Assembly: GCA_951406725.2 (NCBI GenBank) | Contig: OX597827.1 | Location: forward strand, 58,342,001 to 58,406,000 | Direction: 5' to 3' | Source of the DNA: Octopus vulgaris | Taxonomy: Eukaryota | DNA: 64,000 nt | In this document: positions 3,065 to 59,512 of the stretch, piece after piece | How positions within the stretch are numbered: the stretch's first letter is position 1 | Layout of the letters: each line of letters opens with the position of its first letter | The notes under the pieces: model-generated | Told to the model about the DNA's origin: nothing | Seen by the model: only the letters and a program-made list of their open reading frames with translations | The model's database searches: none | Translations under genes and position numbers: made by a program

Positions 3065-3270
3065 AGGTGGCGAGCTGGCAGAAACGTTAGCACACCGGGC
3101 GAAATGCTTTGCTATATTTCGTCTGCTATTAGGTTCTGGGTTCAAATTCCGCCGACTTTGCCTTTTTTCTTTTTTCGGGGTCGATAAATTAAGTACCAGT
3201 TACGCACTAGGGTCGATGTAATCCACTTAATCCGTTTGTCTGTCTTTGTTCGTACCCTCTATGGGTAGTA
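3065..3270 (+). mobile_element. tRNA-derived SINE family A (Meta-domain-like core)
   Basis: ggcgagctggcagaaacgttagcac..gttcaaattccgcc (A/B-box-like) plus gactttgcc..ggggtcgataaa..agtaccag core; many copies in the window. Confidence 0.8.
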
Positions 3271-3327
3271 AAGAAATACGTATAAGGTGGTTCAAAAGTC
3301 ACGCACCAAAACATTTGACTAGTTTAT

Positions 3328-3605
3328 AATAATAATAATAATAATGAAATTATTGTATACAGTGCTCAGGTGCACCGCAACTTATGAAAAGTGCGTATAA
3401 AGCATATGCAATAATGAACAGTGTATGAGTCAGATACCTGCTTGTGTGTGTATGGAGGGGAGAATCTCAGGAAGCATGGAAGTTTTGAAGGATGCAGTGC
3501 TCCGACAACTAACAACTGATGCCGGCAGTTTGTTCCATACTTCAGCAACTCTTAGTGTGAAAAAATGTTTCTGAAAGTCATGGGAGCTGTGCTGTTTTCT
3601 GACTT
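3328..3605 (-). mobile_element. CR1-like LINE 3' end
   Basis: Minus frame HDFQKHFFTLRVAEVWNKLPASVVSCRSTASFK followed by a 3' UTR and an (ATT)n tail. Confidence 0.75.
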
Positions 3606-15685: not shown

Positions 15686-35490
<19,805 letters not shown>

Positions 35491-43739: not shown

Positions 43740-44243
43740 AGGTGATATTTATCTCCATGGCTGTTTCCTGCACCAGCTTTACATAGAAGCCCCAGCCCAT
43801 CCAAAGTATACTGGATCGCAGGACGGCCTGCTGTGCTTACCTTGGATCATAGGGCAACCTGCTGTGCTTGAGGAGACCTATTGAGTCAAAAACATCAACA
43901 TCAAAAATCAAATAGAAATTGTAGTTGTGATACCTGAGCTGGTGGCACGTAAAAAGCACCATCTGAACGTGGCCGATGCTAGCGCCGCCTTGACTGGCTT
44001 CTGTGCCGGTGGTACGTAAAAATTACCAACCAATCATGGCCTCCTCTGGCACCTGTGCTAGTGGCACATAAAAAGCACCCACTACACTCACGGAGTGGTT
44101 GGCGCTAGGAAGGGCATCCAGCTGTAGAAACACTGCCAGATCAGACTGGAGCCTGGTGCAGCCTCCTGGCTTCAGACTCCGGTCCAACCATCCAACCTAT
44201 GCTAGCATGGAAAATGGATGTTAAACGATGATGATGATGATGA
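43740..44243 (+). mobile_element. Longer copy of repeat family C
   Basis: Three tggcacgtaaaaagcacc-type units, ggaagggcatccagctgtagaaac core, (atg)n tail. Confidence 0.7.
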
Positions 44244-44719
44244 CTTAAATGTGGATGTTCTGTTAGAACTATTCTGAGGTAGTTACCATGAGAGAAACTA
44301 TCATATTGACTTTTGGTGCAAAATGTACTCTTGTTTATATCACTAGAGGGGAGATAAATCCCTGCCATCTCCAGCACCGAGACCACTAGATCATGTGATT
44401 TCAACCTTACTTGGTCTTGACAATGATGGATGCTCAACCACTAGAGATAGCAGTGACTCATCTTCTTCCAAATAATATATAGAAAAGTAGTGCAAGAGCA
44501 AGCATTGGTGTTTGCAATTAGCCCGTGAGCTTCTTAAGACCAAAAAAGATAGAGATCTTGTGGTATCAGTGCATAGAAGTGTCAGGGATTTGTCGCCCCA
44601 CTAGTGCGTTTTGCACCAAAAGCCAGCCAATATGAGAGTTTCTCTCATGGAATCTACTGCAGTATAGTCTGTTCTAATGGAACATCCATATTTAAGTGGG
44701 GATAAATATTACCTATCAC

Positions 44720-44812
44720 AAAGAAATATCTGTCAGAAAGAATACAATCTTTGAGAATTGTAAATTGAAATTGGAAGAAGTAATCAAGATATTGTATTTG
44801 TATTCATATGAA
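44720..44812 (+). mobile_element. Possible Merlin/IS1595-like transposase relic
   Basis: ISVRKNTIFENCKLKLEEVIKILYLY resembles the SIRxxTxFExSKL motif; very short. Confidence 0.35.
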
Positions 44813-45134
44813 TCTCTATGCTTTTCTTTTTATCCTTTGATTTTGTTTCATTTTGAAATGTTGGGTAATAGGTGCAGACATGGCTTTGTGGTAAGAAACT
44901 TGCTTTCTGGCCACGTAGTTCTGTGTTCAGTCCCAATGTGTGGCACCTTGGGCAAGTGTCATCTACTATATCCTTGGGCTGACCAAAGTCTTGTGAATGG
45001 ATTTGGTAAATGGAAACTGAAATGTGTGTGTGTGTCCGCCACTACTGCTTGACAACCAATATTGGTGTGTTTACATCCCAGTAACTTAGTGGTCCAACAA
45101 GAGAGACCAATAGAATAAGTACCAAGCTTAAAAA

Positions 45135-45316
45135 TCTCTATATCTATAGACGGAAAAATGTCTGTATCTGTGTGTCCTTTATACAAATCCACAGTTTTTC
45201 ACGTAAAAGGATCGCATTTTCTACGGGCTTTCAAAACTGTCTGAAGCAGGATTTTCATGAAAGACCAAATATGCTTGACTAGCACCAGACCTGGCAATGT
45301 CGGGTCATAGTGCTAG
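45135..45316 (+). mobile_element. Short Helitron-like element nested in a SINE tail
   Basis: A|TC start, gacctggcaatgtcgggtc hairpin, CTAG|T end; SINE sequence resumes after it. Confidence 0.55.
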
Positions 45317-45539
45317 TAAATAAATAAATACCAGGGTCATTCATTCAATTAAAACTCTCCGAAGCAGTGCTCCAGCATGGCCGCAGTCTAATGACTGAAT
45401 CAAGTAAAAGGTAAAAGATAGAAGACAAATAACTAAGAAGCACCAACTCTTCCACTGTAACAATGACCACTGATTCACTCAATTAGTCCACCATTCACCT
45501 CGCACACAATAATTAGCAACAACATCAAACACAGCATGT

Positions 45540-48500
45540 TTAATTAAGTTTTATTTTCTTATAATACTTTCTTGATCTCTGCAATGCCTCTTCAGGATTG
45601 AATAATGGCCGGAAGCCTAAGTACGTCCTTGCTTTGTCATTTTTAAAGGTCAGTGTCATGTTGATGTACTTGATACTGCAGATGGGTGGTTGAGCATTGA
45701 TTTTGACCAAGGGCGATATCAGCCACAAAAACAGATCCCGGATGCTCAAGAGACCATGGATCAACCAATACGGGATGTATACTGGCATGTGCTTGAACCC
45801 ACGGTCATGAAGATAGGGTTCTAGGGTTGTGTAGATGCTGGTCGCAGGTGTGTCGTCGGGCACAAAGAAGTATTGACCTTCTACGTTAGTTAGTTTGTTG
45901 TCGAGGAGTGTCCGATTAGCCATTAGAAACGCCCAGGCCACATTGCCTGCGTAGGATACCTGGAAGATGGCTTTACCATTGCCAACACAGACTGACCATC
46001 CACCTGCGCTATAGGCAGACTGAAGTGCGGAAGGAATAAGGAATGGGTCACCTTCACCATACATGACATTTGGACGCAGCGAAACAGTGTACAGGCGTCC
46101 ACCTGTGGGAGAATAATAAAAATTAGGGTAGAATTCACAGCTTCAGTAATGATGATGATGATGATGAAGATGATAATGATGAGGGTGATGATGTTGTTGA
46201 AGATAATAGTGATGATGATGATTATGAGAGTAATAACGATGGTGATGATGATGATTATGAGAGTAATGACGATGGTGATGATGATGATAATGATGATGAC
46301 TGTTTCCAAGTTAAGCACAAACCCTGAAATTTAGCGGGAGGGGTTAAGCTGATTCCAGTGCTCAACTAGTGTTTATTTTATTGACATTGAAAGGATGAAG
46401 AGCAAAGCCGACCTTGGCAGAATATGAACTCAGGACATAGAGAACCTCAACAAATGCTGCTAAGCATTTTGTCTAGCATGCTAATGATTCTGCCACATCA
46501 CCACCTTAATAATAATAATAATAATAATATCTTGACACATTAGCAAAATGTGAAACCTGAAGACTAAAACAATACCTGTTGTCATAGGTGCCCTAGTAAT
46601 GATAGCAAAAGGGGTTGATTGCTACCTAGCTCAGATACCAGGAAACCCCAAAATGGCAGAAATTCAAAAGTACTCATGGGAACTGCCCATATCCTACGCC
46701 AAATACTCTCTATGTAATCTCAAGTTTTAAAACAAACATAATTTTCTTATGGTTTCTTAAGCATTCTCTAGAACAACACTTTATACAAAACCAAATATAT
46801 GCCACCCTAGGCATAACACCAACATGAACTTCCAACTTGTCTCTTAAGGTCTCTTCAAACTTTGCTATTATAATATTTATTCAAACCCCAGAGAATCTCT
46901 CTCAACACATGGCTATGTATGCTACCCAACTATTCCTGCTCATGATCAGAGAAGCAGATACTGTCAGCCACTAAGGGTTATGGTCAAGCAACATAAGTTA
47001 TGTGGTTATGGCCAGGCAACTGAAAAGCAAGTGCTTATGATCAAGCAAACTGAAAAGCAAATCTGTGATATTGAGCAGAATATTTGCAATAATGATATTT
47101 CTGCTTCAACAACTCAATGCGGAATCTGTGTGAAATATAATGGAAAATAGGTCAGTTTCAAAACGTTGATGTCCAGGTCACAAAAGCAAAGTTTGAAGCG
47201 ACTGGTAGTCAAACCAAGTAAAAGAAAAACAGAATGTGAAGATGAAGCTAGATAAGTGAAGATTTTGGGCTTTCCTCTTACCGTTGGCAAGGTGTGAACC
47301 ATTTGCTCTACAGACTAAATCTTCTGCCTCGTGCTTAGTTTGTGGGTATCCAGGGAAAAGGAAATGGCTTGGTGTGATTGCAGTGTCCTCTGTGCCATCA
47401 ACTATGTTTTTATCTCCTACAACGACGTCTACAGTGCTGCAGAAGATAAGTCGTGGCACACTCATTTCGATGCATGCATGGATAACATTCTCTGTGCCTG
47501 TATGAAAAGGGGAATTAGTAATGGACATTGTTAAGCTGCTCCTATCTACACATACACACATTCTTTACCACATACATATACACTCTCTCTCCGTCTCTCT
47601 CTCACACACATATACACTCTGTCTTTTGTTTCTCACACACAGACACACACACACTCTCTGTCTCTCTCTCTCACATACACAGATAACTATCTGTCTTTGT
47701 CTCTCTCCCTCACACACACACACACATTCTCTCTCTCTCACACACACACATACTCTGTCTTTTGTCTCTCACACACAGACTCTCTCTCTCTCTCAAACAC
47801 ACACGCACACACAATCTCTCTCTCTCTCTCACACATACATCTTTGACACATGTTTTGAAGATAACGCTGATATTATTCCAAAGGAATAAAATGGTGTAAA
47901 AGAATGTAATCTTCTCTTCAGGGAAGTGAAGAAATGAAACTTGTCAATAAGACATTTTAACTGAAAATGATGGATAGTATAGTGATTAACTGAAAGTGCG
48001 AGCCCTCTAACTGAAAAATGACAGTTTGCTATTCACAAATACACCTAAGTCTCTGATATTATCTGATGGTTCAAGTAGGTCTGACGGTGGTGTATATGGT
48101 TGTTTGAGTGTGCCCTCTTTTCCAAAGTGGATGAACTCAAATTTTTCTTTGTTCAACTGCATATATTATTTTTTTGTGCCCACTGAGTTACTGTGCATAG
48201 GTCTGATTGAAGCATCGTTTGATCATATGCTCCCTTAATGACTTTCTGGAACTTAGAGTCATCTACAAATATTTTAATGGTTCTATGTTCAATGGAATCT
48301 GCAATGTCATTGATATCTCTCTCTATATAAACGGCAGTTTGTCTGTGTGCGTGTCTGTGTGTCTGTCAGGTTGTACCCTCACCCTGACCACGGCTTTCAA
48401 CCGATTCTGATGAAACTTGACACACACATAGCCCAATGTCATAATTCAAAACTAACGCAGTGAAAATTTTGAAAAGTTCCCCCAGTTCTGAAAAAGATCG

Positions 48501-51500
48501 GTAAATTCGACATGGGGTCGACAATCAGAAACACAAACCACAGATGGTCTAGGGGACGCAACTCGACCTTTTTAACTCTCAAAAAAATTTACCATAATTT
48601 TTTTCCCATTTTTTTGCTATTTTTTGGCTATAACTCTCTAAAAATGCTTTATAGTTATTTCCGTTACAAACCCGAGCAACGCCGGGCGATACTGCTAGTA
48701 GATATCTTGCAAACAACTTGCACATGCAAGTGCTACCAGTTAAAAGCTCCGTATATCGGAAGCTAGCAAGTGTATGGGGTCATCAGGAGAGAATGCGCGC
48801 CGTTTCGGGGCCTACCTCTCGACGGCATCAATGCGCACCGGCCCCCCTCACTGATATGAGGCCCCGCTTGCTAGATCAGCTGGTTATGATGAACTCAATA
48901 TACTTCTAGCCATCGCTCATCGTCTCTTTTTAACCAAATCCAGTGGCTAGCCTTCTCCACTGTAGATTGGATATCAGTCATGGTGGTATTGACTTTACGA
49001 TGAGTTAGGCCTAACGATAACAACAGTCGTCTCACGCTGTGTCCTACAAACCCTCTACATCCGACTTCGATAGGAAAATGTTCCGCTTTCCAGCCTGCGT
49101 CTTCATATTCCTCGAGGAGGTTTTCATAACGGTTTAATTTTCGAGCTCGAGCGGCGTCCATATTATCTTCGTGAGGAACCGTTAGCTCGACTATATTTAA
49201 AACTTTCTTTCTTTCACACCACATCAAAATATCTGGTTTTTTCGAAACTGGGATGGGAAAGAAAACCTGGCACCCAGGTAAATCTGCAGTTACCTCCCAA
49301 TAGTCGTTCCACTTTTCATTTTTCTCAGGAAGTTTCTTGGTCTTCTTCTTGAAACGGATCTGCTGACCTGGTCGCACGAAGGTAATGAACTCTCTTGATG
49401 GTACTTTTAACGATTTTTCCTCAGTGTTGTTGAGATGAATTTGATTCTTTATAGCATTGAAGATAACCTTAAGGACCAAGTTGTGCCTCCATGTGTACCT
49501 GTTCAATGCTAACGAACAGTTGGAAAGAATATGTTTTAGTGTACCGACTTTTCCACATTTGCAGACGTCATTCTCTAAGACGTTCCATCTTACTAGATTC
49601 GTAGGTGATGGCAAAACATCATAAGATGAACGAATCAGGAAACTCAGCCGAGATGTTGTCCACTTCCACATCTCATCCCAACTTATCTTCCTCTCAACAA
49701 CATGTTCTTCCCATCTCGTCATCTGACCTTGATGAACACATCGGATCAAATGAAGCTCTCTTCTCTCTGCTTCTCTTGTTTTGACGCTGTTGCTAACAAC
49801 AGATCTGCGTTCACACGGCATCATGCTTGCAAACGGTCTGAACTGATCCGCGCCAAAACCAAATCCTTTCCGATGGTTCTGCGTTGCTCCCACCATATCT
49901 CTGTGTGTAAGAGAAGACAAGATGTTGTCAGTTTCTGCTTCTGCTTTCCACTTCCTGGCTGTTTTCACCTCTGGTGGGTTACGCCTGATTTCCATATCCT
50001 TCGATTCTCTCAGCATCATGACCGTCCGTATCTTCCCCAACTTATATATTTCGACTATTGATGCTATTGGTAACTGCAACGAACCTCTTTTACGATAAAG
50101 AGCTGAGCTGTTCAACATACGAGGTAGACCTAGCCACTTTCTAATGAACACATTACATTTTTGTTCGATCTTTTCAACTCGTGACAATGCTACTTCGTAT
50201 ATTAAAAGTGGCCACGCAAGTCGCGGGTACAGGCCGAACTGCAAGCACCAAATTTTATATTTACCTGGTAACTTCGAAACATCAATCGCTGATAACCCAG
50301 CCTCGGCCTGTTTCATAATTTCAATCCCACGACTTCTATCTGACAATGTTCCAGCGTATACTCGTCCCAAGCTCTTGACGGGCTCTTCCTTGACTGTTGG
50401 AATGCTTTCTTCCGATATTCGAAATTTAAATTCTTTCTGCACTCCCTTAACAAATGTCAGACTACGCGACTTTTTTGCTCTAAATCGCATCCTTGACCAC
50501 CTTACACGTTCGTCTAATCTCAAAAGGGCATTCTGCATGATTTGTTTATCTGTAGCTAGAAGTGTCACGTCATCCATGAAGGCTTTCTTAGGCGATTGTA
50601 CATGGGCGATTTGTTCCGAAAAATCTACACCTTTCAAAATCAACTCCATGACTAAGATAAACCACGTGACAGATATTGTACAGCCAGCAGCAATGCCAAC
50701 CTCCAATCGGTGCCAATTTGTTGTAAAACTTCCAGTTGTAAACCTCATTTCGAAACTTTCATAGTACATCCTCATTATTTTGATCACTTTGTCAGGAATG
50801 TGGAAGTGGTCCATGGCTGTTATTAGTAATTTGTGTGGCACTGAACCATACGCGTTAGCTAGGTCGAGCCATACCACGTTCAGACTTTTCTTGTTCTGTT
50901 TGGCATCCTGAATCGCTTTCCAAATCGAAAAACAGTGTTCAACGCATCCAGGGATCCCGGGGATTCCGGCCTTTTGAACAGATTCATCAACATATCCGTT
51001 ACTCTGTAAATATGTCACTGTTCTCCTCGACAGAATTCCCATAAAGATCTTGCCTTCCACATTCAATAAGGATATCGGCCTAAACTGTTTTATGGTCTTT
51101 GCATTGGCCTCTTTCGGCAGGTATATACCTTCTGCCTTACACCAATCCTCTACTATAGTCTCCTCGCGCCACAGTTGTCGGATTAGGACGAAGAGCTTCT
51201 TTCGCAGACGATTGCAGTATTTGTAGACTTTATATGAGACGCCATCACCTCCTGGGGCACTCTTCGCTCTAGCTTTTCTTACGAAGTCATTCACCTCTCT
51301 CTCCCTGATGTCCCCAATCTGGAATTCGATATCAGGTCCTGAGAGATGATTTAGCCCATGTAGAGATGGCAGCGGCTGATTACGGTGCGGATCGCTGTAG
51401 GTTTCCTTGATATGAGCATCCAATTCTTCTTTAGTGCACGATAAAGTACCACTCTTCGGCTCAGTGAACAGCTTCTTAGTAAACCCGTACGGGTCCTTCA

Positions 51501-54039
51501 GAAACTGCCCTCGAGTCCTTTTACTTTCTTTTCGACGCTCATATCGGCGAATATGTCGTTGCACATAACGACATTTCCTCTTCAAATCGTTATACAGCAA
51601 CGCAAGGCCAGGTTTCTCATCTAGTGCAGCACATCTCCATCTCTTTCTTAAGTCGGACTTTTCCTTCCTCAACTGCTGCATTTTTCTGATCCTCCTGCTT
51701 GGTCCACACTTTCCTTTCTCTAGTCGGATATTCTCTTTTATTCCAAATAAATCTCTTGCTACATCGTATATTGAGCTTGATAATTTTCCCAGTTTTTCCA
51801 CTGTAGAGCCTGTCATTTTATAAAGAGTCCGACAAACCTTGTTTTCAAACTCTTTATATTTCACTTTCTCATTAGCAGCAGGCCACAAAACCCTCGGTTT
51901 CCTCTGAGTATTATCCGATGCACCAGTTTCATGACTTGTAGTTTCTTCACGTGAAGAGTTCTGTGCTGTAGCATTTATCGATCCGCTGTGGTTTGAGTCC
52001 GGGGATGATTTGCCACGTGTTTTACGATCTGACGATCCACACTGCTCTGTCCTCTTCTCACAAGTCTTTCCCTGATGTATCTTCAAGCCTCTCTCAGTTG
52101 CAAAGGTTCTATAGCACAGCTTGCATCCAAAGTTGTTTGCATTTCGTCCGCTGTTCGAATGAATAATCATGTTCGTTTCAAAGGTCGTTTCCGTGCTGAC
52201 TGGGTTTGATTGATTCTCGACTCCCCCTCTCGGTCAATCATGGGGCTGTCTTTTCCTGTTATGTCTGTTACAATAAAATACAGAGGCGAGGATCGTAAGT
52301 CCGTAGCCTCCGCCAGTCTTTCCTGGTGTCGATAGTCGTTCCTATTGTCCGCTGGTCTTTCCGAGCAGTCCTCTTGTCTTTCCAAGATGCCTAACCGTCT
52401 TTCCGGTTTGTCAGTGGTTACCTACCACAAGGTCTTAAATATCTTGCAAACAACTTGCACATGCAAGTGCTACCAGTTAAAAGCTCCGTATATCGGAAGC
52501 TAGCAAGTGTATAGGGTCATCAGGAGAGAATGCGCGCCGTTTCGGGGCCTACCTCTCGACGGCATCAATGCGCACCGGCCCCCCTCACTGATATGAGGCC
52601 CCGCTTGCTAGATCAGCTGGTTATGATGAACTCAATATACTTCTAGCCATCGCTCATCGTCTCTTTTTAACCATATCCAGTGGCTAGCCTTCTCCACTGT
52701 AGATTGGATATCAGTCATGGTGGTATTGACTTTACGATGAGTTAGGCCTAACGATAACAACAGTCGTCTCACGCTGTGTCCTACAAACCCTCTACATCCG
52801 ACTTCGATAGGAAAATGTTCCGCTTTCCAGCCTGCGTCTTCATATTCCTCGAGGAGGTTTTCATAACGGTTTAATTTTCGAGCTCGAGCGGCGTCCATAT
52901 TATCTTCGTGAGGAACCGTTAGCTCGACTATATTTAAAACTTTCTTTCTTTCACACCACATCAAAATATCTGGTTTTTTCGAAACTGGGATGGGAAAGAA
53001 AACCTGGCACCCAGGTAAATCTGCAGTTACCTCCCAATAGTCGTTCCACTTTTCATTTTTCTCAGGAAGTTTCTTGGTCTTCTTCTTGAAACGGATCTGC
53101 TGACCTGGTCGCACGAAGGTAATGAATTCTCTTGATGGTACTTTTAACGATAAAAAGAAGTGGACCCAGTACAGTACTCTGTGGGACTCCACTGATGACC
53201 TTTGCTGGTCTTGAGTGGATGCCATCAACCACAACATGCTGGGTCCTGTTTGTTAGGAAATACCTAATCCATTGAAGTAGCTTTCTACTGACTCCAGTGT
53301 TGGATAGTTTTCTTAACAGTATATTGTAGTCGACTCTGTCAAAGGCCTTGCTGAAATCAAGGTACATGACATCTGCATTGGAGCCCTCACTTAGTGCATT
53401 TAACATCTCATATATATATATTTCTTTACTACCCACAAGGGGCTAAACAAGGAGAGACAAAGCGATTAAGTCAATTCCAACGACCCCAGTGCGTAACTGG
53501 TACTTAATATATCGACCCCGAAAGGATGAAAGGCAAAGTCAATCTCGGCCGAATTTGAACTCAGAACTTAACGGCAGACGAAATACGTGTACGCATTTCG
53601 CCCGGCGTGCTACCGTTTCTGCCAGCTTGCACACACACACACACACAGACACACACATTCACCAACATCTATATCAGAGACACAGTATAATATTCAAGTA
53701 AAAATCATTCAACCAACCAACCAGCAAATCAACCAAACCACCAATCTGTCTGTCTGTCTATCTAGATATCTAGCTATCTACATAACTAGTTTCCAGTCAG
53801 TTTGTCTAACACACCATGCTGTCTACAAATAACTTTCCTGTCTTAAATCACCTGAGACATTAACTTTCTGCATCAATTCAGTATCTGGTCTGGTCCCATA
53901 ACTGACTACACCAGCAACATGGTATACAACATCGACTCCATCTAATGCTTGCATGATATTAGTGTAGTTGGTAACATCACCAATGATGTGGCGGCTAGAA
54001 AAATTGTCTTCGTATTCTGCAATGAAAGAAGACAAACAG

Positions 54040-54073
<34 letters not shown>

Positions 54074-54468
54074 CAAATAAGAAAATGGAGAAACAATTTA
54101 GTTGGTTTATCTGCTTTAGGATATTAGAATGTTGACTTATTTATTTATTTAACACAACAAGAACCATAATAACATACATAAATACATTAAAATTCAATAC
54201 ATATAAGATAAGAATACAATTATAAAAACCTTAATATAAATTATATAAAATCACTCTTACAACTGTTTCAGCCTATGGGAAAAGTAGTTTTCAGTGCCTA
54301 TAGTTGTCAATTATATTGAGGCTGTAGGCATTTAAAACTGGGGTACTTATATATTGCAATTAAAAAACACTTGTGTATTAATAATTTGGGTATTATACCA
54401 GCAGTATATTGGATAAGTATTATCCCTTAGTGGGTTGGATCCACAACCCCTAACTTACTTGGTGTGTG

Positions 54469-54510
<42 letters not shown>

Positions 54511-54743
54511 GGAGTAAACACATAAATGTGAAACAAGGTGGAAAAAAGAGTACTCAAATACCAGTGGTAGAGTAATATGCTTTATTTTAAGCAGCAGAAA
54601 ATTCAACAAAATCTGTTACTCTGAGTTTCTTGTTGCCGTTCATCAGACAGTTTTTGCTAGAATCTAGCAAAAACTGTCTGATGAACGGCAACGAGAAACT
54701 CAGAGTAACAGATTTTGTTGAATTTTCTGCTGCTTAAAATAAA

Positions 54744-54790
<47 letters not shown>

Positions 54791-55478
54791 AAGAGAGGGA
54801 GATAGAAGTTACTATTCCCGTGCATGTTGAAAAAATAGATGCTTTAATGAAACTTCTATAATCCACCTTGATGCGAATAAAAGCTGTCAGTGGGAGAGAC
54901 GAATAGAATAATTTTTTTAAAAATTACTGTGAGTTGATAGTGTACTATAGTTTCGGGTTTAACTTGCAAAATTAAACAAATCGATTTTAAAAAAATTAAT
55001 TTAATTTAAATTTGGCAAGTTTGACCTTCCTCAGCACTATTGCTCCATATTTACAAAGAAACATGAATAATTAAAAAAATATTACCTTATTCGTTCATGT
55101 TGAAACCTGATAAAGAAGTTTAGCTTTCTTTCACTCTTGTTATATATATATATATATATATATACACACGTACACATACACATACATATATAAAACACAA
55201 TATACATTTTATACATACATATGTATATAATAAAAAAGCCTGTCTTATCATCGTTTAGCGTCCGTTTTCCATGCTAGCATGGGTTGGACGGTTCTACTGG
55301 GGTCTGTGATGCCAGAAGGCTTCATCAGGCCCAGTCAAATCTGGCAGTGTTTCTACGGCTGGATGCCCTTCCTAACGCCAACCACTCCGTGAGTGTAGTG
55401 GGTGCTTTTTACGTGCCACCCGCACTGGTGCCAGACAGAGCTGGCAAACGGCCACGAATGGATGGTGCTTTTTATGTG

Positions 55479-55522
<44 letters not shown>

Positions 55523-57122
55523 CATGAATGTATGCATGCACGTGTGTGCATGCATGTGTGTGTGTGTGTGTGTGTGTGTGCATGTGTAAAATACACACAT
55601 AAAGTGAGGTGCTGAAAATTCCTCAGAATGAAAGGTAGACTATATGATGCTTGTGTTTCTGAATGCAGAAAACATGTGTAGACTGGAGAGAAATGAAGGT
55701 AGTATGCACTATTGGATGTGCAGCATCAGTGCACATTGTACAACGAAGTGCAAATGTATTGAGAGAAACGTTGGGCATAAGAGGAATCAAATGTAGCATG
55801 CAAGAGAGAAGACTACGTTGATTTGGACATGTGATGCATATGAATGAGGACAGCTGCATAAAGAAGTGCTGATCACTGAAAGTAGATGGTATCTGTGGAA
55901 GAGGGAGACCCATGAAGACATGGGATGCAGTGGTAAGGACCGATCTCATGATGTTGTGTCTCACGGAGGAAATGACAATGGAAATATCTGGCGATATGAA
56001 GTTCTTGAGAAGACCTGCCCATATCAATGAAACTGAGTTCTAGAAGCACTGTGTGTCTCACCCACACTTAACAAGAAAACTTCTCACACACCCTACCACA
56101 ACAAACCAAACTACATCTCTACATTAGTTCTCTTCCTCGCATTTTCACTTCATGCACTATGCTTACTTCCCACTCCCCAATCCTGTCCTCTTGACCCTGT
56201 GCCACTGTATCACTGCTCTTTGCTAGCTTCCGACCCGTGTGTCCCACCCAGGCCCTGCCTTACTGTCTCATTGTATATGCCTGGCACTTTGCCACCATCT
56301 CTATCTTGCTGTCTCCCACTCTCTCTCACCTTCTCCTGCACTTCCCTCAGGCTGGGTAATCATGTATTTCTTTTGCGGCCGTGCACCTGTTTCTGTTCTC
56401 ATTCCTGATCTCTCTCTCTCTGGCCATGTAACCTTGTACCTCCTCTACTGTATGACACCTTTTTCTGTCTTGTAAGTACTTGGTGACCCTGTCACTGCAG
56501 GTGCCACTTAAAAGCACCCGGTCCACACTGTAAAGTGACTGGCATTTGGAAGAGCATCTAGCTGTAAAAATCTTGCCAAAATTGACCTCACCTGTGCTTG
56601 TGCCATGTAAAAAGCACTGAGTTCATTCAGTGTTAGGAAGGGTATCCAGCTGTAAAAATCCAGCCAAAAAATCACAGAAGTTTGGTGCAGGCTATTATCA
56701 AACCATTTACTCATGCCAGCATGGAAGGTGAATGTTAAATGATGATGATGATGAAACCTTGGGTACTTGATTATTAACTTAAATTCCAACAAATGCCTTT
56801 CTAGTGTCGAGTAATTCTGGTTTCTTAGTAATGAGTGTATATATGTGTGTGTGTATGCGTGCAAGTGAATGTGTGTGTGTGTAAATGTATATGCATGATG
56901 TAAAAAATAACTTGAAATCTAACCATGCATCAAAGAATTTGTTAATGCAAGAATCTCTTTTCTATACATACCTAGAAATTTCTTAATGGGCTGAACATCG
57001 AATGTACGTACTTCACGCACATCATCGCATTTTGTTTGTAAAAGATGTACAATGTGCTGTCCAAGGAAGCCCGAACCACCTGTCACCACACACACTTGTT
57101 TTGCTCTCCTCTCTGGTGCCAT
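45540..57122 (-). CDS. 3-beta-hydroxysteroid dehydrogenase-like extended SDR (HSD3B/HSD3B7-like), 4 coding exons, 364 aa
   Basis: Exons 57122-56972, 54016-53852, 47497-47282, 46102-45540, all phase-1 GT-AG junctions, 1095 nt in total. NAD-binding VTGGSGFLG, VYHVAG, NVSGTENV, catalytic YPQTK (YxxxK), LRPNVMYGEGD, YAGNVAWA. Confidence 0.93.
46148..46300. repeat. Compound (ATG)n microsatellite
   Basis: Imperfect gatgatgat repeats; explains the spurious poly-Met and poly-Ile ORFs. Confidence 0.9.
46545..46720 (+). mobile_element. R4/Dong-like RLE LINE C-terminal relic
   Basis: Degenerate LKTKTIPVVIGALVMI..IQK..MGTAHILRQILSM, next to an (AAT)n run. Confidence 0.65.
47547..47840. repeat. Compound (CA)n/(CT)n microsatellite
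   Basis: Alternating cacaca and ctctct tracts. Confidence 0.9.
48316..48698 (+). mobile_element. Non-autonomous Helitron-like element
   Basis: 5' TC, subterminal hairpin cccgagcaacgccggg, 3' CTAG, inserted between A and T; close copy at 40020-40395. Confidence 0.75.
48763..48874 (-). ncRNA. Putative rearranged (non-circularly permuted) hammerhead ribozyme, copy 1
   Basis: Sense RNA: CUAGCAAG-c-GGGGCCU...UGCGC..GCCGUC^GAGAG-gu-AGGCCCC-GAAA-CGGC-GCGCA-uu-CUCUC-CUGAUGA-ccccauaca-CUUGCUAG. All three core segments and stems I, II and III can pair. Confidence 0.72.
48895..52170 (-). CDS. Retrotransposon polyprotein: N-terminal zinc finger, reverse transcriptase, CCHC knuckle, restriction-like endonuclease (1091 aa)
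   Basis: CKLC..RGLKIHQGKTC; FRPISLLNVEGK, WLDLANAYGSVPH, GIAAGCTIS, AFMDD; CKCGKVGTLKHILSNC, RYTWRHN; KPDI..VELTVP..K, PIEVGCRGFVG. Confidence 0.95.
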   Translation of the reverse strand: MIIHSNSGRNANNFGCKLCYRTFATERGLKIHQGKTCEKRTEQCGSSDRKTRGKSSPDSNHSGSINATAQNSSREETTSHETGASDNTQRKPRVLWPAANEKVKYKEFENKVCRTLYKMTGSTVEKLGKLSSSIYDVARDLFGIKENIRLEKGKCGPSRRIRKMQQLRKEKSDLRKRWRCAALDEKPGLALLYNDLKRKCRYVQRHIRRYERRKESKRTRGQFLKDPYGFTKKLFTEPKSGTLSCTKEELDAHIKETYSDPHRNQPLPSLHGLNHLSGPDIEFQIGDIREREVNDFVRKARAKSAPGGDGVSYKVYKYCNRLRKKLFVLIRQLWREETIVEDWCKAEGIYLPKEANAKTIKQFRPISLLNVEGKIFMGILSRRTVTYLQSNGYVDESVQKAGIPGIPGCVEHCFSIWKAIQDAKQNKKSLNVVWLDLANAYGSVPHKLLITAMDHFHIPDKVIKIMRMYYESFEMRFTTGSFTTNWHRLEVGIAAGCTISVTWFILVMELILKGVDFSEQIAHVQSPKKAFMDDVTLLATDKQIMQNALLRLDERVRWSRMRFRAKKSRSLTFVKGVQKEFKFRISEESIPTVKEEPVKSLGRVYAGTLSDRSRGIEIMKQAEAGLSAIDVSKLPGKYKIWCLQFGLYPRLAWPLLIYEVALSRVEKIEQKCNVFIRKWLGLPRMLNSSALYRKRGSLQLPIASIVEIYKLGKIRTVMMLRESKDMEIRRNPPEVKTARKWKAEAETDNILSSLTHRDMVGATQNHRKGFGFGADQFRPFASMMPCERRSVVSNSVKTREAERRELHLIRCVHQGQMTRWEEHVVERKISWDEMWKWTTSRLSFLIRSSYDVLPSPTNLVRWNVLENDVCKCGKVGTLKHILSNCSLALNRYTWRHNLVLKVIFNAIKNQIHLNNTEEKSLKVPSREFITFVRPGQQIRFKKKTKKLPEKNEKWNDYWEVTADLPGCQVFFPIPVSKKPDILMWCERKKVLNIVELTVPHEDNMDAARARKLNRYENLLEEYEDAGWKAEHFPIEVGCRGFVGHSVRRLLLSLGLTHRKVNTTMTDIQSTVEKASHWIWLKRDDERWLEVY
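52439..53151 (-). mobile_element. 713-bp copy of the retrotransposon's 3' end, fused head-to-tail to the 5' end of the full-length element
   Basis: Direct repeat of 48702-49414 at offset 3737; 3 substitutions seen by eye; encodes the identical RLE C-terminus and the 3' UTR. Confidence 0.95.
52500..52611 (-). ncRNA. Putative rearranged hammerhead ribozyme, copy 2
   Basis: Identical to copy 1 except one substitution in the linker after CUGAUGA; predicted cut between 52558 and 52557. Confidence 0.72.
53152..53408 (-). mobile_element. CR1/L2-like LINE reverse-transcriptase fragment
   Basis: DVMYLDFSKAFDRVD..LLRKL..WIRYFLTNRTQHVVVDG..VISGVPQSTVLGPLLFI; truncated at the junction with the HERO-like 3' copy. 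Confidence 0.88.
54580..54744. repeat. Near-perfect 165-bp palindrome with a Penelope-type minimal hammerhead motif in each arm
   Basis: Arms about 82 bp with one mismatch; right arm reads ctgt-CTGATGA-acggcaacga-GAAA-ctcagag-TA-acag. Confidence 0.85.
55640..56030 (+). mobile_element. RTE-clade LINE C-terminal relic
   Basis: RLERNE..LRETLGIRGI..MQERRLR*FGHVMHM..GRGRPMKTW with stop codons. Confidence 0.75.
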
Positions 57123-57439
57123 GTTACTGCTGTACCGGAGAGCTGTAGATTTGGTTGGAAGGATAAGAAGTAAGCTTAAAAATAAGAAAAAGCGTTGGTG
57201 AGAGAGAAAGAGAGTAAGAAATAAAAAGGAGAATGAGACACAGAGAGCATGATTGTAAGGAAACCCTGCAATCAGCAACACACACAACAATCTACATCCA
57301 AGCAAAATACTGTATTCTCCCTATTTTGCTCTCTAGTGCTTTCATCAGTCAAGGTTCGACCATGCTTATGTGCAGGTTTTGTTAAACTATTTTGATAAAT
57401 ATAGGAACGTACATATGGATGTAATTATGCTATCTCTTA

Positions 57440-57852
57440 TTTCGTTATTGCCCACAAGGGGCTAAACATAGAGGGGACAAACAAGGACAGGCAAAGGGAT
57501 TAAGTCGATTACATCAACCTCAGTGCGTAACTGGTACTTAATTTATTGAACCCGAGAGGATGAAAGGCAAAGTCAACTTCAGCAGAATTTGAACTCAGGA
57601 CGTAAAGACAGATGAAATACCTAATTCTTTACTACCCACAAGAGGCTACACACAGAGAGGACAAACAAGGACAGACAAATGGATTAAGTCGATTATATCG
57701 ACCCCAGTGCGTAACTGGTACTTATTTAATTGACCCCGAAAGGATGAAAGGCAAAGTTGACCTCAGCAGAATTTGACTCAGGACGTAAAGACAGATGAAA
57801 TACCACTAAGCATTTCGCCCGGCATGCTAACGTTTCTGCCAGCTCACCGCCT
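57440..57852 (-). mobile_element. SINE family A with partial tandem duplication
   Basis: Two consecutive cccacaag..ctggtactt..gaatttgaactcagg units. Confidence 0.8.
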
Positions 57853-59512
57853 TATGCGTATCATATATTATGGTGGTGGTATTTGGCTAAGTGGCATTGG
57901 ACTATCTCTATGCGACTAATTTTTATCCAAGGGAAAGGTTGCCAGATTAGGCCAATGCAGCTTAATACCATGCCATCACAGGGCTGTCAAAATATAAGCA
58001 GCCAAAATAGATACCACAAGGTTCCTGTCTTTGTTTCTAATACACCTTTTGTGCACCCACTGACTAAATCTGAGTACACCAAACAAAATTTCTTCCAATT
58101 TTTTATCTGCATATTGAGCAAGCTATTTCCCAAATGGGAGTAAAAGTACTGTTTTAGCTCCTACAGATTAAAATCATCATCTATCCTCATTTAACGTCTG
58201 CTTTCCTTGCTGGTATGGGTTAGACAATTTGACTGGAACTGGTAAACCACAGAGCTGCACCAAGCTCAAGTTTGATTTGGCATGGATTCTATGGCTGGAT
58301 ACCCTGCCAAACACTAACCACACAAAGAGTGTAATGAGTAGTTTTTATGTGACACAGACACAGGGGCCATTTGCATGACACCAGCAATTGCCATGACTAC
58401 GATTCCAAGGGGGGCATTTACATGACGCTGGCAACAGTCACGACTATGATTTCACTTTGCTTGACAAGTCTTCCCAAGCACAGCATATTGTGCAAGGACT
58501 CAGTCACTTGCCATCGCCTCCATGGGGCTCAACATTCGAAGATCACGCTACCAGCAACAACAATAACAACAATAATAATACATATATCTATATATACACA
58601 CACACACACAAATATACATATATATACACAACTAATGTAGGATAAAACTTTTTTCGAAAAAAAATTTTATCAATGGCCAGCATATCAAAAATTACCTTTA
58701 AAGGTTAAATTTATAAATTTATATCATCATTCATTTAGCGTCCGTTTTCCATGCTAGCATGCATACACACACATATATATATATATATACCAAATAAGTA
58801 AGGGGTTGTGGATCCAACCCTCTAAGGGATAATACTTATCCAATATACTGTTGGTATACTACCCAAATTATTAATACACAAATGTTTTTAATTGCAATGC
58901 AATGAACTCACTTATTGTATTAAATGGGTGAAGGTAAAGAAATATTTTACCGTTAATTTATATTACAAATAAAAATAAGAAAATGGAGAAACACATTAGT
59001 TAGTTTATCAGCTTTAGGATATTAGAATGTTGTCTTATTTAATAAACAATATATACATTTAATAAACACATATATACATATATATGGATATACATACACA
59101 CACACATATATATACATATATAGATACACATGCGCGCATGCACACACACATATATATATAATTAGAAAGTAATGTAATAAAACATTATGGATGATACATA
59201 ACAAATGATTAAGATTACTTATGAATATATCAATGGCCAAACATGTTATCATAAAATACAAAGAAGAAAAACGTTTATAAATCACAATTATAACTAAGAG
59301 GGTTAAAAAATCCTTACATGTTAAAAATAGCAGCCAAAACTGCTATAAAGACATTATATCACTCATATTATTTCTCCTCATGATAAAAACTGTCTTCGGG
59401 CCTCATGACAAATAGAATCCACAACTTAAAGATAACTGGTTAATTCCGTATTGCAATGATGGATCGTTAGCTACTACACACTTTTTTTTCTCTTGTTGTT
59501 TTTTTCTGTGTA

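Follow-up and report, generated by a model that had tools for sequence, protein, structure and literature searches.

The window, a stretch of 64,000 nucleotides, carries on its minus strand an R2-like non-LTR retrotransposon with a restriction-like endonuclease (RLE), in whose 5' UTR five short hairpins with differing stems and a nearly constant GAAAGA loop follow one another. The element probably copies itself from a circular RNA of ~3.7 kb, a reading that draws on sequence comparison, and the array could be where the element's own reverse transcriptase/endonuclease loads onto this predicted circle, fixing the point at which copying starts. This last proposal, to which a probability of about 0.45 is given, has to be weighed against roles in translation, against other steps carried out by the same protein, and against schemes of copying that need no circle.

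The element and its copies

Three features mark the coding part of the element and its end:

48895..52233, minus strand: single ORF, 1112 aa stop to stop (PF00078, 5e-19; fold and sequence matches)
52223..52245, minus strand: conserved CCCC...CC-GAGA-GG hairpin at the ORF start, containing ATG 52241
48699..48710, minus strand: insertion 3' end (the core ends at 48702, followed by 3 nt of continuing sequence)

The ORF encodes, in order, an N-terminal CCHC-type zinc finger, a basic helical hairpin (aa 180-246), a reverse transcriptase (RT) of the non-LTR type (PF00078, 5e-19), a CCHC knuckle and a restriction-like endonuclease. An alignment of 48 sequences shows conservation of the C-x-C..H..C and WRHN motifs as well as of PD and ELTVP, as expected of a CCHC knuckle and a PD..(D/E)xK-type endonuclease. 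In the predicted structure (pLDDT 82.5), whose fold search returned R2 structures as its top seven matches, the segment aa 180-246 is a long, very basic helical hairpin that is also conserved in the alignment, making it a candidate binding surface. The nearest solved relatives are R2 chains both by sequence and by fold, and the element has the fixed 3' end and variable 5' truncation that the RLE class requires; it is an R2-like (RLE) non-LTR retrotransposon. Membership of the R2 clade proper was rejected, given dispersed, non-rDNA flanks and no Rfam ribozyme match for the HDV-like type; the flanks of the insertion sites are varied and many are TA-rich. Named homologs in databases are labelled 'uncharacterized'; an N-terminal query returned 294 matches among protein representatives. 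Among viral contigs there was a single weak match (24%).

The likely start codon is ATG 52241, and the hairpin that contains it is a candidate translation-initiation element. This ATG is in frame only with a run of six G at 52222-52227. The run has five letters in the window, while 13 matched loci (L021-L046) have five in seven cases and six in six. Six G were also read in contigs of runs X1, X2, X3, X6 and X14, among eight sequencing runs examined at the level of contigs only; with five runs reading six, the five-letter version may be a homopolymer assembly error.

The family is very high-copy and consists mostly of short 3' fragments, own-genome candidates numbering 21,926 for the C-terminal region and 69 for the 5' UTR; fragments that are long enough each contain the ribozyme motif described below. 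The element of the window splits an older LINE RT frame (window 53150-53450 and 48000-48330), the remainder of that RT being set off from the element's 3' end by a separate insertion of ~330 bp (48330-48700). Elsewhere in the window, positions 54621-54703 form a near-perfect inverted repeat of 83 nt with sub-threshold microRNA-family matches, probably the remnant of a small DNA transposon, and a further long open frame, of 738 aa from stop to stop, occupies 23465-25681 on the plus strand.

Immediately upstream, the array is bordered by the terminal 713 nt of the element's own sequence instead of host DNA, and these differ from the downstream copy by three substitutions:

52439..53151, minus strand: partial upstream repeat, 713 nt (ORF end and 3' UTR), a pseudo-LTR-like overrun
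52436..52447, minus strand: junction at which the element's 3' end runs into the 5' UTR, the putative internal priming site

The same arrangement recurs in the genome, where the best 40 candidates of each search were scored. With a 5'-UTR-only query, 24 of 30 loci among the best 40 candidates are preceded by the element's own 3' end at the same junction, the remaining six being truncated within the UTR, while an ORF-only query, again among the best 40 candidates, gave 14 of 30 loci extending past the junction. Two further searches (best 40 candidates each), combined with eight earlier loci, make 40 distinct loci, of which 27 overrun the junction, by 8 to 1976 nt, and 17 do so far enough for a second whole ribozyme. 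No fixed 5' end is apparent in this set drawn from the best 40 candidates per search: of the 40 loci, 0 have their end at the predicted cut or 5 nt or less from the junction, and stops are equally frequent on both sides of the latter (2.6-2.8 per kb). Target-site duplications were not clear in any of 12 loci, save a TA repeat; the 5'-truncated copy L070 has an apparent one of ~45 nt.

The 3' ends and the paired repeats bear directly on the nature of the template. After removal of one junction row from a set of 36, 11 of the 35 3' ends, where 0.65 would be expected (p 2e-11), still have 3 or more bases of the lead-in to the array, and the template thus extends beyond the point of priming. Within one locus, the two repeats agree in nearly all subfamily variants (exceptions being L173 and L174), and variants found in no other copy are common to both repeats in L162, L166, L170, L176, L177 and L180. 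Differences between repeats are scattered, often at CpG, and no indel at the cut site is present among those listed (the first 25 for the two oldest loci). In metagenomes, ten contigs contain in succession an ORF end, the ribozyme, the array and an ORF start, an order that repeat assembly could mimic. In a further contig, L128:3036-8474, a distant relative (32% identity) is arranged head to tail as a long partial dimer, and its two ribozyme copies are identical.

Several copies are internally deleted (L172, L178, L179, L180, L181, L032, L049, L020 and L206). Their deletions mostly join unit positions ~680-850 to ~3100-3440, often at microhomologies, and L181 holds two different jumps in one insertion. 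From these sequences the RT appears to switch templates during copying; non-autonomous mini-circles, considered as the source of the internal deletions, were rejected from the 9 of 21 loci covered, as L181 argues for template switches.

A hammerhead-like RNA with rearranged blocks

The array sits just behind a hammerhead-like RNA, in an order that is fixed across relatives, and the partial repeat provides the element of the window with two copies of this RNA:

52500..52611, minus strand: upstream copy of the permuted hammerhead-like RNA, predicted cut 52558/52557
from 52611 (5' strand) and to 52500 (3' strand), minus strand: P0 of the upstream copy
52598-52583, minus strand: hairpin V, with the 5' strand of stem II from 52582
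52574-52570 with 52535-52531, minus strand: pseudoknot
52563-52553 and 52549-52536, minus strand: cut-site block and GAAA block
52528-52517, minus strand: stem I' and CUGAUGA
48763..48874, minus strand: downstream copy, in the 3' UTR, predicted cut 48821/48820
48821..52557, minus strand: predicted cut-to-cut monomer of 3737 nt, the putative circular template

The family pattern served to place P0 and V in the window by eye, the descriptor search for P0 being silent there. The blocks occur in the order cut-site block, GAAA block, CUGAnGA (S, G, C), as in type-SGC hammerheads, but the strand before GAAA has no pairing partner in what follows CUGAnGA (0 bp for each of the 37 matches listed). The partner strand of stem II lies upstream instead, and two helices, P0 and V, separate CUGAnGA from stem II: CUGAnGA is followed by P0, whose other strand leads through hairpin V to G10.1, while an additional pseudoknot flanks stem III. 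This geometry would permit P0 to stack with V, the two joining the core in a four-way junction in which A9 stays on G10.1.

A descriptor of this RNA gave 35 sense and 0 antisense matches, as compared with 1 in 20 locally shuffled sets (290,705 nt). The hammerhead core of the 3' UTR is clade-wide; among ORF ends with at least 200 nt downstream, the ribozyme is found in 27 of 37, and a relaxed core is present in three of the ten that have no strict match. In L127 and L158, which have long inter-ORF regions, the ribozyme lies 600-740 nt past the stop, and in L090, likewise with a long inter-ORF region, ~1.6 kb past it. In a sequence-only alignment of 21 hand-delimited sequences (the window and 20 of the 35 metagenome matches), the core (CUGAnGA, GAAA and the UH cut site) is invariant in 21/21, with GC in 20 sequences and GU in one at pair 10.1-11.1. 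Two-sided changes affect 24 of 27 pairs, with a covariation of 0.62 against 0.21 in shuffled and at most 0.17 in slid alignments. Stems I to III are 95-100% paired, with two-sided changes, and this pairing is partly selected since the descriptor demands it; P0, V and the pseudoknot, which are not demanded, are 75-85% paired, and P0 with at least 8 Watson-Crick pairs occurs in 16/35 matches versus 0/35 controls. This hammerhead-type RNA is predicted to cut itself.

Other assignments were tried. A canonical SGC hammerhead was rejected, as the strand of stem II does not directly follow CUGAnGA (0 bp), and HDV-like, twister and antisense hammerhead candidates were dropped on inspection by eye, the antisense count of the descriptor being 0. 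The present arrangement of blocks was not found in the literature covered, which took in part of PMC10085705; the alignments that accompany that paper and the data set of Fell et al. 2025 may be relevant to its novelty.

An overrun of ~176 nt or more would give a copy two ribozymes, and a read-through transcript cut at both would release the 3737-nt monomer. The ends of the monomer would be held by helices P0, II and III together with the pseudoknot, and would then be ligated into a circle by the ribozyme or by a host ligase. RtcB-type ligases of the host are possible joiners of RNA ends. For retrozymes, RtcB ligation is described as demonstrated in excerpts of PMC7229834. A linear, double-cut monomer could be copied for only ~120 nt from the priming site, and the RNA must therefore be either uncut or closed into a circle. 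Conservation of the catalytic core favours the circle over uncut RNA. As the RT seems to switch templates, end-to-end jumping between linear monomers is a less likely route. The preliminary description had allowed for an RNA left uncapped or circular by ribozyme cleavage, and this premise has now gained strong indirect support from ribozyme covariation, private variants, overruns and retained 3' bases.

The hairpin array and its possible roles

The array itself is composed as follows:

52410..52428, minus strand: lead hairpin and UGAC opening the array, with a counterpart in most rows of the relatives' alignment
52313..52408, minus strand: five stem-GAAAGA-stem hairpins, spacing 19-21 nt, with short (U/G)GAC-like linkers (fold and conservation)
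52408-52393, 52387-52372, 52366-52351, 52345-52332 and 52326-52313, minus strand: the individual hairpins

All five hairpins of the preliminary description were found at their positions on the minus strand. The MFE and centroid structures of a 131-nt stretch consist of these hairpins, hairpin 3 being register-shifted owing to its mismatch, and the stretch folds with z = -2.45, 4 of 200 shuffles being as good. A motif for scanning the window, defined after inspection of the data, has 5 matches in 130 nt (four true hairpins and one overlapping, spurious match), whereas none of 20,000 dinucleotide shuffles has more than 2; hairpin 4 escapes it because of its variant loop. By the same scan, no other run of at least two units exists in the 64 kb, on either strand. 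Rfam has no family for the array or the ribozyme within window 44000-58000, where its 29 sub-threshold microRNA- or scaRNA-like matches all fall outside the element; among nine relatives it likewise returned no family for either, and one weak unrelated match.

Comparison of 30 family loci of the same genome (the window copy and 29 others) refines this picture. The GAACGA reported for loop 4 is present in the window, but it is a private variant and not a family trait, GAAAGA standing at 29/29 other loci. The mismatch of stem 3 is equally real in the window, but it belongs to the youngest subfamily rather than to the family as a whole, and older copies are perfectly paired; in one of these, L175, each of the five hairpins forms with a probability of at least 0.94. 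The hairpins first described are, moreover, only part of a larger repeat unit, which adds the single-stranded (U/G)GAC-like linker and is preceded by the conserved lead hairpin. Their placement in the 5' UTR, correct in that they lie ahead of the ORF, tells half the story, as they also lie directly 3' of the putative RT start site on the template.

Relatives were represented by 80 metagenome loci, of which 38 have enough sequence upstream of the ORF for an array scan, the window being added to these. A loop-blind scan of the 39 5' regions, for any 6-nt loop on at least 4 Watson-Crick pairs, most often returned the hexaloop G-GAAAGA-C (17 times, including 3 in the window), followed by GAGAGA (6) and by GGAAGA, GTAAGA and GATTGG (4 each). 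A motif for the relatives, broadened from these results, matches 75 times in sense and 6 times in antisense, with 7.2 expected from shuffles. Arrays were to be looked for in related elements, and they are present: 21 of the 38 metagenome 5' regions have at least two units, mostly 19-22 nt apart and with different stems. The other 17 have fewer than two, several being apparently truncated, and L091 (another relative with long inter-ORF regions) and L094, where the array is absent from 340 nt near the ORF, may truly be without one. Arrays of the relatives hold 2 to 5 units, each made of a UGAC-like linker and a stem of 4-5 bp, usually closed by G-C and bearing a G(A/G)NAG(A) or GAAYAG(N) loop, with the lead hairpin first; one possible reading of the loop is a GNRA-like turn that has a bulge of 2 nt on its 3' side. 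On a quick RT tree of loci with either motif, whose RT identity to the window's protein is 38-59%, loop, pairing and spacing are kept in all deep branches. The varied stems and kept loops of the relatives bear out the claim of a conserved RNA structure as opposed to a simple repeat; a strand test on the stems (G-U versus A-C) gave 17 versus 12, in a small sample that includes spurious ORF matches.

The position of the array is what links it to reverse transcription. Insertions end 3-16 nt before the lead hairpin in five other families and 10 nt before it here, which makes the array the first structure 3' of the priming site and, by the same token, the last thing copied in each round; as it lies directly 3' of the presumed RT start, the element's own enzyme is favoured over translation factors. 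The protein would bind the lead hairpin and the array, possibly in several copies and through the basic helical hairpin aa 180-246, and would nick AT-rich DNA, the nicked end pairing with the template at a site a few bases 5' of the array. The multivalent protein-binding platform proposed in the preliminary description is a candidate reading of the same array. Copying would then proceed round the circle, mostly stopping early, whereas a completed round would continue by strand displacement, restore a second ribozyme and so create a new donor copy. Among nine stops inside the array, four fall on the first G of a loop (a post hoc observation, p 7e-4), while the overall stop rate is not raised over the array and recurrent stop positions also occur outside it (-26, -368 and 255). 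Also counting against enzyme loading are the broken pair of hairpin 3 in the youngest subfamily, a unit number that ranges from 2 to 5, and the 17 of 38 relatives with fewer than two units. R2 proteins, in the accessible part of PMC12222951, bind a 3' UTR element lying 5' of the priming point, and the ribozyme region could thus be the true RT handle instead. As a tentative generalization, with somewhat less than an even chance, a clade of autonomous RLE LINEs as a whole would share a closed, full-length circular RNA, an active hammerhead of new topology split at A9/G10.1 by an insertion resembling a four-way junction, internal priming set by the protein-bound array, and a terminal repeat that is regenerated with each complete insertion.

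The array might instead, with the same ribozyme and circle, recruit the host translation machinery to a capless RNA, as an IRES-like element or enhancer acting with the start-codon hairpin. This main rival is a less likely reading that draws on several facts: 70-170 nt separate the array from the ORF downstream; RNA that is cut or circular lacks a cap; and the distance from the last hairpin of the array to the start-codon hairpin is conserved (89-96 nt in seven relatives, 71 in the window), which agrees just as well with a role in translation. It also has precedents, in that the ribozyme-bearing UTRs of R2 and L1Tc are thought to be IRES-like in excerpts of PMC6765202, and cleavage aids cap-independent translation in other systems according to portions of PMC13725137 and PMC8501958. 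Against these stand the start-codon hairpin, a nearer candidate for the same task, and the start of the array 3-16 nt from the priming site in six families. To our knowledge, no host factor is known for such loops, which also weighs against translation.

Less likely again is a role in which the array binds the element's own protein for some other step, such as second-strand cleavage by a recruited second subunit, or packaging into an RNP and shielding of the circle from being cut again. Repeated units would suit several subunits, R2 structures that include 5' ORF RNA exist (8iby, 8ibz), and the 5' RNA segment of R2Bm governs second-strand cleavage in the available text of PMC2346776. Most insertions, however, stop far short of the array (21,926 versus 69 candidates), a pattern that is compatible with such a role all the same, and the tight link of the array to the priming site would be left unexplained.

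Slightly more improbable still is a linear template, either uncut read-through RNA from partial tandems or RNA traversed by end-to-end jumps of the RT, in which case the array would serve either as a DNA-level promoter or within a linear 5' UTR. Partial tandems are normal in Penelope-like elements (as excerpted from PMC8557442), template switching is suggested by microhomology at internal deletions and by the two jumps of L181, and the activity of the ribozyme is predicted only. On such a template, however, overruns of up to 1976 nt would shrink in each generation, and the locus-private variants carried by both repeats, the continuing sequence retained at 3' ends, and the lack of an indel scar at the cut site among the differences listed all speak against it; a DNA promoter, for its part, needs neither stems that covary as their sequence changes nor a strand-specific motif. 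Finally, the proposal that tandems result from insertion of new copies where older ones begin at their 5' end, the hairpins being a decayed and functionless short tandem repeat, can appeal to 3' flanks that often resemble the junction sequence and to stems that are often alike among relatives (CCAG 19 times), as past duplication of units predicts, but it is already contradicted by private variants common to both repeats, by the strand bias of the motif, by clean starts at the junction in 0/40 loci with overruns as short as 8-27 nt (best 40 candidates per search), and by the loop, pairing and spacing kept across deep RT-tree branches.

Comparison with known systems

Among the closest known systems are R2Bm and R2Tg, of the R2 group of RLE elements, which likewise have one ORF coding for an N-terminal zinc finger, an RT, a CCHC knuckle and an RLE, and are also often truncated at the 5' end. 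R2, in the available text of PMC6765202, has an HDV-like ribozyme at its 5' end that defines a fixed 5' end, whereas the present element has a hammerhead-type motif in its 3' UTR, no fixed 5' end, and an overrun into its own 3' end. With HERO, the label given by the preliminary description, it has non-specific, TA-rich insertion in common; HERO elements, in the part of PMC4640811 at hand, insert mostly non-specifically, some into microsatellites, with TA-rich targets. R2-type enzymes are under development for gene insertion from linear RNA, as presented in portions of PMC13580325 and PMC12222951. If the present proposal is true, a relative that is loaded on a stable circle by a short modular array, and that primes beside this array, would be relevant to such gene insertion.

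Type-SGC hammerheads (Eckert et al. 2023; PMC10085705, from excerpts here and below) share with the present RNA the core nucleotides, the block order, a short linker between stems I and II, and multiple pseudoknots. In SGC motifs, however, the strand of stem II comes directly after CUGAnGA and the blocks are assumed to be uninterruptible (PMC10085705), while here this strand lies upstream and P0 and V are inserted between A9 and G10.1. Insertions in the hammerhead core, as reported in the available text of Perreault et al. (PMC3088659), are of 1-2 nt only. SGC motifs have been reported almost only from metatranscriptomes (excerpts of PMC10085705), whereas the present one resides within retrotransposon DNA. 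If true, this would be a natural hammerhead topology that violates the published assumption of three uninterruptible core blocks.

Penelope-like elements and animal retrozymes have the same partial tandems, with hammerheads in the repeat, and a circular RNA template giving rise to tandem cDNA has been proposed for them in excerpts of PMC8557442, PMC6765202, PMC7229834 and 10.64898/2026.07.22.740005. Penelope-like elements have a GIY-YIG nuclease and type I hammerheads, in contrast to the RLE and the other ribozyme topology found here; retrozymes are non-coding and of 170-400 nt, as opposed to an autonomous LINE of 3.7 kb with a hairpin array. Assignment to either group was ruled out by the domains of the ORF and the R2-type fold, there being an ORF and neither GIY-YIG nor a telomerase-like RT. 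The LINE Perere-3, with 5' twister variants, is likewise non-site-specific with a self-cleaving ribozyme of its own (here predicted); its twister lies at the 5' end and its target duplications beside the cut (portions of PMC8501958), while here no insertion ends at the cut. The circular-template route has so far only been proposed, for retrozymes and Penelope-like elements, where it is hard to test, and the present element would, if the proposal is true, offer a clean case of an autonomous LINE with a circular RNA template and internal priming. No ribozyme, hairpin array or circular intermediate in HERO or other RLE elements was found in the literature, from which subscription papers, Repbase Reports and supplements largely fell outside the scope.

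Arrays of hairpins that bind protein are known from lambda boxB, from CsrB/RsmZ, and from the AUGC-linked hairpins of alfalfa mosaic virus. The likeness of the present array to them is one of resemblance only, and consists in repeated short hairpins with a fixed purine-rich loop and variable stems; in the array of alfalfa mosaic virus, as here, the hairpins are joined by a conserved linker of 4 nt.
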